The position numbers and the translations under genes are program-made. A DNA stretch of 64,000 nt from NCBI RefSeq assembly GCF_051903065.1, contig NZ_CP178438.1, one strand, 5' to 3'. Below are positions 16,121 to 24,710 of this stretch, piece by piece. Position 1 is the stretch's first letter, and the number at the start of each line of letters is the position of its first letter. The DNA is from Escherichia coli (GTDB lineage Bacteria; Pseudomonadota; Gammaproteobacteria; Enterobacterales; Enterobacteriaceae). The notes beneath the pieces are model-generated. The model did not search any database and was not told where the DNA came from. It saw only the letters and a list, made by a program, of their open reading frames with translations.

Positions 16121-17154
16121 GTTGATGACTCCTGAAAGTTAATGATGTTTTAAGCTCTGTGAGCGAATTAATGCTTTCGCTCATAATCAGATCTAAAACG
16201 GTAATAACTTACAGATGGTATTTATCAGGCATGCTGTAGCAGAATGAATACGACGGGTTATTAACGATACGCAGCATTATGCAGAAAGAAATGGATTATC
16301 TGATGGTATTTGCTAAAGAGATGAGATAAACGAGGAGCGAATAAAATACAGAATCAATAAACATCACGAAATACTGCAAAACACGCGATAAAAACCCACA
16401 ACCAGAAGGTTAAGAAATATATTTCGACCAATCAATCATAAACTACAAACTTGCTCTCAGTGGTTCTAAAAAAACGTGAACAAGGCCAACGCAATAAACT
16501 TATACGCCCTCATCCAATCTGTTCTTAAGGACATGAACGTTAACCGCACACATTACCAGAGTAAAAAATACCACTGGCATGATTTTTACTCTGCATCTTA
16601 AACAATACAACCCGAAACAAACATAATCAGGAATTCACTCTGTTAATTTCATTGTTTATCCTGCACTGTTAAACATGACGAAATCATGGACACCTTATCA
16701 AAGAGTAAACATTCAGTTAATCAGTGATGACAGAAGTATTGATATTTACCGGAATGGTTAAAACATATCAGATAAACAATCATTGTTAAGCAAATACAGC
16801 TCATGATGGATAAAATTAAAATAAATTATTATTTCACTGAAAACAGGAACAGAGAGTGAGTAAAGACAGGAAGTAAATAACAATAGAGATTATATCAAAA
16901 AGGGAGTGAGTATAATAATAGTAATAAACCTAAATTAAAAATATCCATGTTTTATGTAAATACAAATCTGTTTCATAATTATGTACAGAGGTTCGTTATA
17001 ACGAATCTGTAAGTAATTCAGTGTAATTGCTACCATATTAAAGGTGATCGCTCAGGTGTCAGCGCCAGCGATAATAAGACGGTCACCATTTGGATTTTCC
17101 GCTCCACCCAACATGTTGTTTCCTTAAGGTTCTCACACCAGAAATGACATCAAC

Positions 17155-21333: not shown

Positions 21334-22065
21334 TCACCTGCCATCCAGTAGACGCCCCAGCCCACGACTGCAACCATAATTACGTTGACCAGAACCGTCA
21401 TGCTGCTTCGTCTCATACTTCACGAGATAACGGGCTCTCTCCATGGCTTTCTGCATCGCTTCCACATCACCACGCTTGACCCAGAGAACAGCGGATCCAC
21501 CAGATTTTTTGTCAGAATCCTTCCGGGTATCAGAACATCCACCAGGCACAGGCGTATCATCGGAAGAAGGGCGAGCATCAGATGATGTCGGTTTACGGAA
21601 AGGCGTCCGCCTGGAAAAATGAACCAGTCCATTACCCTGCCAGGGCTCAAGATGCAGAGCACTGCACCATGCCAGCTTGATCAGTGTCGCCAGCGAAGAA
21701 GGAACGGTGAAATCCCCTGGCGAGCACCAGGTATCTTTGTTGAGCAGTAATATCACGTGATAATGTTTCCTGCCTTTTTCCTTGCCAAACTCCCGACACC
21801 AGAAATAACGCAGAGTGGTTGCACGCACACGCTTGTTGGCACGTCGTTTTTTCCGCTGGTAAGCCTGAATTTTTGCTTTCAGGGATGCAAAAAAACGAGA
21901 AATCACCGCTGAATCTAAATCGGTATCCATGATGGTGGCAGGCATATACTCAGGGAAACGTAAATCCACCCGGATTAACGAGACGGCACGGTGTTGCGCC
22001 AGGGCACCGTTGAGAATACTTTCAAAACGGGATAACCAGTAAGCATTGTGTATTGGTTGATTCAT
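21334..22065 (-). CDS. YagK/YfjJ-family (inovirus Gp2-like) protein, paralog 3
   Basis: 243 aa; …KHYHVILLLNKDTW… core; preceded by about 1.5 kb of AT-rich ORF-free DNA. Confidence 0.6.
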   Translation of the reverse strand: MNQPIHNAYWLSRFESILNGALAQHRAVSLIRVDLRFPEYMPATIMDTDLDSAVISRFFASLKAKIQAYQRKKRRANKRVRATTLRYFWCREFGKEKGRKHYHVILLLNKDTWCSPGDFTVPSSLATLIKLAWCSALHLEPWQGNGLVHFSRRTPFRKPTSSDARPSSDDTPVPGGCSDTRKDSDKKSGGSAVLWVKRGDVEAMQKAMERARYLVKYETKQHDGSGQRNYGCSRGLGRLLDGR

Positions 22066-23579
22066 GATGAGAGATCTCCGTTGATTTGGATTGACTTCAC
22101 ATCATTAATCACCGCGGTAAAACTTTACGGCATCCGGCATTGAGCAATGCTACAACTTTCGGATTAAGAGTGATTGAAACGGAACAAACCATCCCGGAAC
22201 AAAAAGATAATTCTACACGCAGGGTAAAAACACTCAAGAACAGCGAATGGATTTAAAAACGACATGGACAACGAGAAAAGTCAGAAGGGAAAAGGATCCA
22301 CAGAACATTCAAACAAAACACCAGAAACGCAACCAGAACGCTTCCTGGTAATGCAAATCAACAACAACCCCAAAACCTACAGCTTAATCACACAACTCAA
22401 TCACGGATGCGAATGACACGTTTAAAACCTGTTTACAGATAACGCCGTTACACGATCATCCCCATCAGAATCGATTTTCCCTTCCTGAAAGCGTTACGTT
22501 TCACTACGCACCATAAAAACGATTAACCATCGATAACGTAAACTTCATCTGAATCAAAACACCAAAACCGTTCATCACACTTTCGCAATGCAAGAAGAGT
22601 CACATCATGACGAAAACAATGACCTTACACGGAAAAGAAAACGTCAGGAATCGTTAATGCCTCAATCTGATTGTTATCAAAACATCCAGAAAGTCGTTTA
22701 ACAGAATCGTCGTAAGCACATCGAAAAGAACGTCAGATTACTTCAGGAAAGTTCGGGTTGATTTAGCGTAAAGATACTTTTCTCATGCTAACGTCGAAAC
22801 TCGAAATATCAGGAAAGGTTAAACGTAACATCAGTAAAATCGAATAGCAGATTGATTGCTGAAGCAGAAAGGTTTTACAGCAGCATTAAACTGATTTTAG
22901 CTAACGTAAAGATTTACTAAACTGGATGTATTTCAGACAAAGCAATGTGTACAGCAATGCTTAACGAAAACACTTGTAGAAGTGTTTATGAAAATACGTG
23001 TATAACACTTACTGAAATGCTTAGTAAAAATACGTGTATATAGTATCATACCGACATTCTCAACTCTTCCAAACATCCATGCAGACTGAATGTTGATTAC
23101 CCGTTTTCACATCAGGCATGGTTCTTTACTGACCAAAAAACAAACTGGTTTACTCTTGAATTATTTTCTCTACCTCAGAAAACATGGTCTCAGGAATCTG
23201 TTATGGCTTCGTAGTTTCTGTTGTTCTTTTCATAAAAGTTATAAGTTATTGTCATAATCATACGATAATCACTTTATGTTAGTTTTTACTGTTACACGCT
23301 ACTGACTTTTTCAGTCATTGCCAGAAAGGGGCTCTTTTTACTTCCATTTCACCACTCAACAAATGCAAAACTCGTCCAGTAAAGCGGACCACCACTTGCT
23401 CACAAGCAACGAATCGTCTCCAGGAACAGCCCTCAAACATTGCAGAAACAAAAACAACAAAACCCTCATTATCACTGATGTTCGGAAAATTTCCATGACC
23501 CAAAAAACGAAATTTAAATGAGACGCATTATCATGCGTGTGATCAAAAAGACGTTATGGTAGCTTTCAGTTAAATGGTG

Positions 23580-24710
23580 CTATTTCTCATAAATCCACTT
23601 AACTTTTTTTACTGATTCATCCCAGAGAACCACTTTATCAGTAAAAAATGAATTATATAGATTGACGAGTTTTTCTGTTTCAGTTATTCCCAATGCATTA
23701 TGTATCAGTTGTAGATATGCTTTTATCCAGATTTCTTTACCCTCCCTCCACTTATCTATAAAAATTTCCAACTTACTTAATCGTTGATTTATAAAAAATG
23801 AATCAATATCATGAAAAAACTCAACAAGAAAACAGCACGAGATAATCTCAACAAAAAACAAATTCTCCTTAAAAGCATTATAAAACTTTATCAACACATA
23901 ACGAAAAACACCTCCTGTTAACCTTTCCTGTTCATAAAACAACAAGCCAAAAATAGGCGGAAATCTTTTAACCACACCACTTTTAATCCAGTAAGGATGA
24001 TGATTAGTCTTTACTGGCAGTGAATAAAAGAACAATTCGGTTTCTCTTTTCCCACCACAAACAGACAAAACAGTCTTATAAAGACTTTTTGAATCACTAT
24101 ATCCTGACACTCCAGACGAATTAGCAGGGTATTTTCTTTTTACTTTTTGCCTTAATGGAGCTGGAAGAATAATAAAACGGGATGGTAGATAACAATCGCT
24201 TTCAGAAGACCTGCATTCGCACACATGAAGATTTATATTTACATCCGGACAATTCAAAAACCACACAGAATAATTATCGCTCCGTTTGCAATATGAAACC
24301 CATGAATAAATTGCATAAAGTTCAGAAAGTACATCTAACTCTGCTTTTGATTTAAATGTGATACCGTTTCTTCGAATTCTCGTTTCCAGCGTTCTCCATG
24401 CCGGAGTTTTCAGTATCTCACGAACTTTTTTATTAAGTTCAACCAGCGATGGTCCCTGCTCCTGTTTATGTTTCTTCCTGCTGTTAATGATTTCTCTTTC
24501 TTTTACTAATTTTTTCTTACTTTTGGGTCCTTTTATCTTTCTTGGCAATGCTTCATTTAATCTGTGAACAGGATTTTGCTCTCTTCTTTTTTTGAGCTCA
24601 CAAAACCTCTCATAATGTTTTCTGCACAGTCTTTTCTCCACTGCCATTTTTACTGAGAAAACCTGATTGTTACAATTTTTTCTGACGCATTTGTTTTTAC
24701 GTCCGGTCAT
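23580..24710 (-). CDS. Hypothetical low-GC protein with N-terminal Cys cluster
   Basis: 376 aa, Lys-rich; N-terminal CVRKNCNNQ…CRKHYERFC suggests a zinc ribbon; no homolog recognised. Confidence 0.5.
   Translation of the reverse strand: MTGRKNKCVRKNCNNQVFSVKMAVEKRLCRKHYERFCELKKRREQNPVHRLNEALPRKIKGPKSKKKLVKEREIINSRKKHKQEQGPSLVELNKKVREILKTPAWRTLETRIRRNGITFKSKAELDVLSELYAIYSWVSYCKRSDNYSVWFLNCPDVNINLHVCECRSSESDCYLPSRFIILPAPLRQKVKRKYPANSSGVSGYSDSKSLYKTVLSVCGGKRETELFFYSLPVKTNHHPYWIKSGVVKRFPPIFGLLFYEQERLTGGVFRYVLIKFYNAFKENLFFVEIISCCFLVEFFHDIDSFFINQRLSKLEIFIDKWREGKEIWIKAYLQLIHNALGITETEKLVNLYNSFFTDKVVLWDESVKKVKWIYEK

Follow-up and report, generated by a model that had tools for sequence, protein, structure and literature searches.

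The window analyzed here is a 64,000-nucleotide stretch of Escherichia coli contig NZ_CP178438.1 (assembly GCF_051903065.1). It includes a CP4-type genomic island, and in this island an AT-rich tract of about 1.5 kb (22066 to 23579) lies upstream of a gene for a protein of the inovirus Gp2 family. Read along the minus strand, the tract comes after a 376-aa hypothetical gene and is followed by the Gp2 gene, a restriction-endonuclease gene, and insertion sequence (IS) debris. To the right of the tract is an arm with GTPase, helix-turn-helix (HTH), DUF932, antirestriction, RadC, and YeeU-CbtA genes. The whole region is 100% identical to that of strain GDSC2BY4G. The O157:H7 strain 86-24 carries a 98% identical island beside Zorya genes (ECs_5256 to ECs_5258 in Sakai SpLE6), and the Sakai leuX region is without the element. 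The positions of the features described below are collected in Table 1.

The original prediction, made from the DNA letters and a list of open reading frames (ORFs), described the tract as a strand-asymmetric, AT-rich stretch without ORFs. We found this description to be accurate. The G+C content is 38%, and on the plus strand A exceeds T and C exceeds G (A 36.1%, C 21.5%, G 16.6%, T 25.8%), whereas the average composition of the window is close to even. The skew peaks in 22066 to 22800 (plus strand A 38.1%, T 21.5%, C 23.4%, G 17.0%). When transcribed from the minus strand, the A+C-rich tract becomes a C-poor, U+G-rich RNA. The longest ORF has 67 aa, and no ORF is conserved. Some genomes label a plus-strand ORF of 50 to 57 aa (22264 to 22416) as "hypothetical protein," but the frame is interrupted in several variants, and we rejected it as a real gene. 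Comparison of the tract variants by tblastn with ORFs of at least 60 aa from 78 related loci gave chance-level matches only, with no search of a full protein database, and on this result a pseudogene or decayed coding sequence was also rejected.

By megablast, the tract is present in 1,879 of 5,426 complete E. coli genomes, in up to eight places per genome and around 3,250 copies in all, and annotations nearly always omit it. Across query positions 1 to 1106, identity ranges from 100% to about 77%, and homology among the island variants ends at 23171. Past this point the variants differ in DNA and in cargo genes, and the segment from 23172 to 23579 was found only in variants with the 376-aa gene. 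Thirteen E. coli contexts were fetched. In 11 of them the tract begins at the start codon of a Gp2-family gene; in the remaining two (L012 and L013), an IS in the leader separates the tract from the gene. Among nine variants, the conserved unit (22066 to 23171) is 78 to 93% identical in pairwise comparison, versus 83 to 96% at the four-fold sites of the Gp2 gene. The variant alignment is mosaic and laden with indels, and the indel lengths are not multiples of three. The tract occurs on only four E. coli plasmids. Its sequence was absent from 78 loci of other genera (blastn and nhmmer), and it was not found in phages.

The Gp2-like protein matches the Pfam families YagK_YfjJ_C and REP_ORF2-G2P, and also phage replication-initiator PHROGs. 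Residues H101, H103, Y213, K216, and K220 are invariant in 42 homologues. The HUH motif is HYH (residues 101 to 103), and the tyrosine motif YxxK is Y213-x-x-K216. A structure model with a predicted local distance difference test score (pLDDT) of 84 superposes best on the nickase domains of parvovirus NS1 and adeno-associated virus (AAV) Rep, with further matches to an archaeal virus Rep, the Helitron transposase, a RAYT, and RepB. The model has the alpha/beta fold of the Rep/relaxase type. Its motifs and predicted fold identify the Gp2-like protein as an HUH endonuclease. Between the HUH core and the tyrosine helix, proteins of the E. coli clade have a low-complexity insert of about 45 residues (approximately 151 to 195, pLDDT below 50) that no other genus shares. 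Frameshifts or truncations affect many database entries of the E. coli-clade protein. The family is nearly absent from viral contigs, with six loci in 2.9 million (IMG/VR), all on large contigs; on this count we rejected a viral origin. Literature searches found no functional study of Gp2, YagK, or YfjJ. Gp2/YagK/YfjJ-like genes have been described as a core component of widespread islands, including Pseudomonas islands moved by jumbo phages (bioRxiv 10.1101/2024.08.29.610337). The island class with such genes includes E. coli CP4-6 and CP4-57, the leuX and pheV islands, and the Shigella SRL island.

To describe what is shared upstream of these genes, we fetched 80 loci of Gp2 relatives, one genome per species (GTDB); the search alignment held nine sequences. 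Two motifs were derived from k-mer enrichment upstream of the Gp2-like genes, and scans used position-weight matrices (PWMs) with a threshold of at least 12 bits for each motif. Motif B reads TGTYGG, then about 10 nt, then TATAxT or ATATAT, and it lies 55 to 120 bp downstream of motif A. In 32 of 80 loci of other genera, a co-oriented pair of the two lies no more than 1.4 kb upstream of the gene, and in four more it lies 2.2 to 3.7 kb upstream. The pair also stands upstream of K-12 yagK and yfjJ, and in three IMG/VR loci that are independent of the motif definition. No pair was found elsewhere in the 1.57 Mb scanned on both strands. The window holds exactly one strong motif A (23164) and one strong motif B (23056), both on the minus strand. 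This motif B scores 20.8 bits and is the sole strong match in the 64 kb. Motif A lies 99 bp upstream of TGTCGG and marks the edge of the conserved unit.

The A-to-B spacings fall into classes of 53, 56, 66, 76 to 78, 86, 91, 99, 110, and 118 to 120 bp. Within periods of 5 to 20 bp the best fit is 10.8 bp (R 0.66, nominal p about 0.01, from only 11 spacing classes and uncorrected for the period scan), which suggests that A and B are held on one face of the DNA helix. Such phasing would point to a function at the DNA level rather than the RNA level. When single-stranded DNA of the A-to-B region from 27 loci was folded, no conserved hairpin recurred at a fixed place in or between the two motifs, and a hairpin near the motifs as the nick site of the HUH enzyme was rejected for this reason. 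In many genera motif B contains TAGTATTAT. This word matches eight of nine positions of TAGTATTAC, which we take to be the consensus of the nonanucleotide of circular Rep-encoding single-stranded DNA (CRESS) viruses, and we treat the match as a lead only.

Motif B contains a predicted sigma70 promoter. The -35 hexamer is TTGAGA (23063 to 23058), the invariant TGTCGG (23056 to 23051) lies in the spacer, and the -10 element is TATACA (23040 to 23035). With the hexamers assigned by alignment, this arrangement has nine of 12 consensus matches, and a promoter scan also picked up an overlapping TTGGAA-16-TATGAT. The tract as a whole has five promoter-like sites versus 4.6 in shuffled sequences. Because this count is no higher than in the shuffles, the case for a promoter rests on positional conservation: across 30 loci, mean promoter-likeness is 7.4 of 12 at motif B versus about 6 at shifted positions. 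In the K-12 yagK-yagL spacer, a genomic SELEX (systematic evolution of ligands by exponential enrichment) peak for RNA polymerase holoenzyme has been listed as a "constitutive promoter," TTTAGA-16-TATAAT, with a flag for H-NS (PMC3946193). This K-12 promoter coincides with motif B, as TGTTGG comes right after the -35 hexamer and TATAAT is the AT-rich end. Transcription of the Gp2 gene is predicted to start near 23028, which would give a leader of about 960 nt.

The repeat zone begins at the -10 element of motif B. The original prediction had pointed to two copies of a short repeat 36 nt apart, and we found this pair to be exact at 14 nt (AAAATACGTGTATA, 22991 to 23004 and 23027 to 23040). We estimate that chance would give about 0.01 exact 14-mer repeats in 1.5 kb of the tract composition. 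The related repeat with CACTT was also present, as a 29-nt composite (AATGCTTA...CACTT, 22950 to 22978 and 23010 to 23038) with 76% identity. On the coding strand the repeat reads TATACACGTATTTT; it echoes the -10-region word, starts at the -10 element, and recurs 36 nt downstream, carrying a second TATACA. Further along are related RYGTGTAT copies (plus strand) and CTTAGT(A)AAA units. Every homologous E. coli island examined has such repeats, with three to seven copies of RYGTGTAT and one to six of CTTAGT among the variants. A hairpin of AAACACTT and AAGTGTTT in the repeat zone is not conserved among the variants and was rejected.

Repeats of other sequence stand at the same position in other genera. 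Limnobaculum has five 36-nt direct repeats of unrelated sequence, and Budvicia has seventeen 8-nt TGTAATAC units. Proteus and other Budvicia loci have 31-nt, 16-nt, and 11-nt repeats, and Superficieibacter has 11-nt repeats; 9-nt words in Hafnia are not significant as repeats. Overall, about 10 of 30 non-redundant loci have significant repeats, versus two of 25 control segments. A conserved core with lineage-specific direct repeats is seen both at HUH-initiator sites and at operators of autoregulated genes, and it is plausible from their arrangement that the repeats are protein-binding sites. They do not have the pattern of classical plasmid iterons, which is at least three repeats of 17 to 22 bp at a spacing of about 22 bp or a multiple. 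The core word here has 8 to 14 nt. In the window its copies are spaced by 36, 49, and about 22 nt, and the spacing varies in other variants. Of the two explanations offered in the original prediction, iteron-like binding sites hold up at the sequence level, although the repeats are shorter and less regular than true iterons, and a structured RNA does not, for reasons given below. Its broader statement that this is not random intergenic DNA is borne out so far as sequence analysis reaches, with the repeats adjoining the family-wide motif B.

At the other end of the unit, conservation of the tract among E. coli variants is highest (0.98) in the 60 to 70 nt that lead up to the start codon. A U-run plus AC (22124 to 22118) is followed by a hairpin, CCGCGGUGAUU...AAUCAACGGAG (22117 to 22076), whose 3' arm holds the Shine-Dalgarno (SD) sequence GGAG (22079 to 22076). 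The two arms of the hairpin span 22117 to 22107 and 22086 to 22076. Homologous leaders in Hafnia, Kosakonia, Tatumella, and others have a T-run then AC, GATTGATGTGAA, and GGAG in the 3' arm of the hairpin, and more distant members have a CCTATG...CATAGG hairpin in the same place. In 57 non-redundant loci, the segment from -70 to +3 has a mean z of -1.18 versus shuffles (p = 4.5e-6), with the SD 60% paired. In the window, z is -1.44 and the paired fraction of the SD is 0.89. The hairpin loop contains a mini-ORF, ATGATGTGA (22105 to 22097, minus strand). A "TATGA" word occurs at the mini-ORF position across genera (loci L019 to L090) and sometimes opens an upstream ORF of 2 to 10 codons. It is sometimes in frame with the gene, and therefore the start-codon annotation may be wrong in Hafnia-like loci.

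Between the repeat zone and the proximal hairpin lies the central leader. The distance from motif B to the start codon is 100 to 300 nt in most genera and 370 to 540 nt in Budvicia and Limnobaculum. It reaches at least 1 kb in the E. coli clade and, independently, in Hafnia, Siccibacter, Superficieibacter, and Tenebrionibacter. This interval is an insertion hotspot. In E. coli it has taken up IS3, ISEc10, and a 176-aa opposite-strand ORF (L012:2267-3429, L013:1156-3407, and L008:2616-3146), and in Hafnia and Siccibacter it holds opposite-strand genes of 658 and 270 aa (L020:2916-4892 and L025:3868-4680). Two blocks, 22317 to 22407 and 22454 to 22569, show conservation above 94% in variants that are about 20% different elsewhere. 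The first block includes the terminator-like hairpin, and its stretch at 22355 to 22407 is conserved too. In the second block, two ATCGAT palindromes are separated by 68 nt, and there is also a TCGATAAC word similar to an H-NS nucleation site.

Long leaders have more G than C in the RNA sense in 10 of 11 cases, with unrelated sequences, and short leaders have more C than G. The A+C richness of the plus strand, which first drew attention to the tract, is therefore the mirror image of a C-poor, U/G-rich leader RNA. Rho loads on RNA that is C-rich, G-poor, and unstructured. Our preferred reading is that the bias would serve to avoid Rho in a long untranslated RNA that needs read-through; relic coding or R-loop formation may also account for it. 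In RNA folding, sliding windows over 22116 to 23540 on both strands gave z-scores of -0.8 to +1.9 against dinucleotide shuffles, with one plus-strand window at -2.1, and the plus strand has almost no structure (-11 to -14 kcal/mol per 150 nt). A search of Rfam 15, over the window at gathering thresholds and over the tract in E-value mode, found no relevant family in the tract; the best sub-threshold scores were 18 to 22 bits versus the required 48 to 55. Given the fast divergence, the lack of a protein remnant or an Rfam family, and the flat folding, most of the tract is weakly constrained non-coding DNA.

Table 1. Positions of the tract, its sequence features, and the adjacent gene in the window
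Feature	Position	Strand	Description
Tract	22066-23579		Plus strand A+C-rich, ORF-poor; conserved unit is 22066-23171 only
Variant-specific segment	23172-23579		Outside conserved unit; 3' flank of 376-aa cargo gene (23580-24710, minus)
Motif A	23149-23164 (reads 23164-23149)	minus	ATAATTCAAGAGTAAA; family consensus TAAYWYCAGAGTRR; PWM 17.5 bits, best match in window
Motif B	23035-23063	minus	Predicted sigma70 promoter of Gp2 gene, TTGAGA-17-TATACA
Repeat zone	22925-23034		Three or four RYGTGTAT (reverse complement ATACACRY) and two CTTAGT, including the 14-nt and 29-nt pairs
Central leader (spacer)	22126-22924	minus	About 800 nt; fast-evolving, indel-rich, insertion-prone
Terminator-like hairpin with U-rich tail	22313-22345	minus	Sole such site in 21900-23800; in conserved block 22317-22407
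Proximal leader (motif C)	22066-22125	minus	U-run plus AC, hairpin at ribosome-binding site, mini-ORF
Gp2-like gene	21334-22065	minus	243 aa, "inovirus Gp2 family"; HUH endonuclease of YagK/YfjJ family by motifs and model; tract upstream

We somewhat favor the view that the minus strand from 23171 to 22066 is the cis-control region and untranslated leader of the island HUH-endonuclease gene. In this scenario, the sigma70 promoter embedded in motif B would start transcription, and motif A, about 100 bp upstream and on the same helical face, would be a second protein-binding site. The repeats of the -10-region word (TATACACGT) and of CTTAGTAAAA would then fall within the first 100 to 200 transcribed bp. 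Most likely they would be bound, as operators or iterons, by a DNA-binding protein particular to the lineage, for which the HUH protein itself is the prime candidate, and they could also pause sigma70-bound polymerase near the promoter. The leader would next cross the weakly constrained spacer of about 800 nt, with its one terminator-like hairpin, as a C-poor, G/U-rich RNA that should be a poor substrate for Rho. Its final conserved hairpin would occlude the ribosome-binding site. Silencing of the AT-rich DNA by H-NS is likely as well. With the promoter, operator, terminator-like, and SD-hairpin layers together, the Gp2 gene would be held off at several levels. The analysis establishes how conserved, how placed, and how specific motifs A and B, the repeats, and the proximal leader are, together with the HUH character of the protein; the binding partners of A, B, and the repeats, the pausing, and the parts played by Rho and H-NS are inferred. 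The unannotated block of about 1.1 kb, carried by a third of complete E. coli genomes and thus of interest for annotation, is on balance a regulatory leader, neither a missed gene nor an RNA family.

Several points weigh against this model. Promoter activity of motif B in the tract is inferred from sequence and from the K-12 paralogue yagK. The -10 element TATACA does not end in the T of the consensus, and the -35 element is poor in many members of the family. A second promoter may lie nearer the Gp2 gene. Only about one lineage in three has significant repeats, and the phasing statistic has the small number of classes and the uncorrected p value given above. Covariation in the SD hairpin is thin in the alignable subset, where one of five pairs changes on both sides, and we therefore rate the conserved hairpin over the Gp2 ribosome-binding site as suggestive. 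In other variants an AlpA-type gene follows Gp2. In this window the restriction-endonuclease gene and IS debris stand in its place, and part of the operon may therefore be defunct here.

A different role for the same sequences would be a rolling-circle origin or an origin of transfer (oriT). The HUH protein would bind the repeats, nick the DNA, and replicate or mobilize the excised island, and the promoter would overlap the origin. NS1 and AAV Rep-type nickases bind tandem direct repeats beside the nick site, and promoter-origin overlap is known from geminiviruses and some rolling-circle plasmids. The invariant HxH and catalytic tyrosine of the enzyme, its fold nearest to the parvovirus NS1/AAV Rep nickases, Helitron, and RepB, and lineage-specific repeat arrays at a fixed position, as expected for Rep-specific iterons, are all consistent with this role. 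The placement of the module between the nuclease gene and the antirestriction/RadC/DUF932 arm may also resemble a conjugative leading region. However, no conserved hairpin that could present a nick site was found at A, at B, or between them, and the window has no second A/B copy as a termination site. Spacing between the repeats is irregular, and two thirds of lineages do not have them. The 2.9 million viral contigs contain only six loci of the family, and the literature searches made here found no report of island replication or transfer driven by this gene. The phasing of A and B at about 10.8 bp fits a transcription-control module at least as well. We regard an origin as doubtful. A more specific form has A, B, and the repeats as the cis site of YagK/YfjJ/Gp2-type nucleases and the rolling-circle or transfer origin of CP4-type islands, a widespread class with int, alpA, Gp2-like, and RadC genes; transcription from motif B through the G-over-C leader would provide single-stranded DNA, for example by an R-loop. 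If this form were true, it would explain the movement of these "cryptic prophages" and defence islands, but we consider it distinctly improbable.

The tract could instead be functionless filler apart from a short promoter and ribosome-binding site. It would be H-NS-silenced debris of decayed cargo or mobile elements, with repeats from slippage or duplication and a strand bias left over from a former plus-strand gene or produced by mutation bias. Divergence as fast as or faster than that of four-fold sites, the many indels, and the mosaic alignment all fit this explanation. The interval also takes IS elements and whole genes in other strains and genera, variation in repeat copy number is typical of duplication, and the central part has no counterpart in other genera. 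However, the two internal blocks are conserved above 94% among variants about 20% apart, and the ORFs of 78 related loci gave no detectable protein remnant by tblastn. The G-over-C bias recurs in unrelated long leaders of other genera, and repeat arrays recur at the same position in unrelated sequence. These conserved blocks and recurring features contradict pure filler, and we judge the explanation improbable. The suggestion that the tract is a large structured non-coding RNA, or a trans-acting small RNA (sRNA), draws on its being long, conserved, ORF-free, and strand-asymmetric, and on a weak sub-threshold Rfam match to STnc550 (18 bits versus a gathering score of 48). Against it, no Rfam family reaches threshold, the z-scores are near 0 on both strands with an almost structureless plus strand, sequence turnover is fast with non-triplet indels, and there is no conservation outside Escherichia. 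We find a structured RNA spanning the tract very improbable.

The proposed control region can be compared with several known systems. Control regions of HUH Rep genes, such as the geminivirus common region, the pMV158 double-strand origin with its PDR and DDR repeats, and the AAV Rep-binding element with its trs, likewise have lineage-specific repeats at or in the promoter of the nuclease gene, and their repeat sequence shifts with lineage while the flanking core is conserved. The tract differs from them in having no conserved nick-site hairpin, short (8- to 14-nt core) and irregular repeats, and a leader of about 1 kb between module and gene. In addition, no replication or nicking activity is known for the Gp2/YagK/YfjJ family. 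Theta-type plasmid iterons (pSC101, P1, and F) are also direct repeats of variable number near a replication-type gene. However, the repeats here are not 17- to 22-bp units at helical spacing, the associated protein is by prediction an HUH nickase rather than a RepA-type initiator, and neither DnaA boxes nor a distinct AT-rich unwinding element was identified in the tract.

Promoters of Q and AlpA antitermination (lambda PR', phages 21 and 82, and Pseudomonas aeruginosa PalpB; PMC9371919) resemble the tract in an invariant hexamer between -35 and -10, comparable to the 6-bp AlpA- or Q-binding element (ABE/QBE), in a -10-like word in the initially transcribed region, and in a terminator-like hairpin downstream. 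An AlpA-family gene is also part of the same operon in sister islands. However, the island AlpA has 78 aa with only an excisionase-like Phage_AlpA HTH, and lacks the N-terminal ring domain of the P. aeruginosa antiterminator, a protein of about 150 aa with its HTH around residues 128 to 142. TGTYGG is unrelated to GGGACG, and no antiterminator gene with a ring domain is found downstream of Gp2 in the window. Because the island AlpA is a 78-aa HTH protein without the ring domain, the likeness is an analogy only. The long 5' leaders of acquired enterobacterial genes that H-NS silences are a further parallel. The tract is likewise 38% G+C, ORF-free, island-borne, and upstream of a mobile-element gene, and the promoter region of the K-12 paralogue is listed as H-NS-bound (PMC3946193). 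In contrast to these leaders, its bipartite signature spans orders of Gammaproteobacteria, and AT-richness alone cannot explain such a signature. What is new here is the family-wide A/B signature, the promoter-proximal position of the repeats, and the inflated, compositionally biased leader. A phased two-part signature that travels with Gp2-like genes across genera offers a defined DNA target for questions about the nuclease and its control.

The island contains two tandem modules of an HUH gene with a long AT-rich upstream tract, and an H-NS paralogue gene lies between them. The left module is 10.9 to 14.1 kb to the left of the tract (L001:10897-14055) and retains a downstream 190-aa gene and the gene for the 78-aa AlpA-family protein. 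In the right module, to which the present tract belongs, these two genes are replaced by the restriction-endonuclease gene and IS256/IS fragments. Another AT-rich tract, 16121 to 17056, lies upstream of a 189-aa gene of the YagK/YfjJ type. The original prediction had proposed comparing the two tracts, and BLAST found no similarity between them. The 16121 to 17056 tract has an inverted pair that resembles motif A (CAGAGTAAAAA and TTTTTACTCTG, 16 nt apart, 16557 to 16567 and 16584 to 16594) and a minus-strand AATTAACAGAGTGAAT (16633 to 16648), and we found no clear motif B in it.

The interval from motif A to the YfjP-type GTPase gene is a swap-in cargo slot. In the window it holds the 376-aa gene, and in other E. 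coli islands it holds a 407-aa gene (L007:4993-6216) or a pair of 262-aa and 316-aa genes (L006:5209-6944). The cargo-slot genes had no matches in NCBIfam, PHROGs, or PADLOC. A family of 260 to 330 aa, here called X, is a recurrent, divergently transcribed neighbor of Gp2-like genes in many genera (for example, L006:5209-5997, L028:3635-4573, L046:2549-3451, and L090:3508-4434), with only faint C-terminal Pfam matches to ribbon-helix-helix and RepB-regulator families. There is no X homologue beside K-12 yagK or yfjJ, and thus motif A is not tied to X. Elsewhere in the island, Rfam identified the Hfq-binding sRNA isrC (150 bits, 9332 to 9454) and a group II intron domain (65 bits, 12218 to 12304) beside the ltrA reverse-transcriptase gene.

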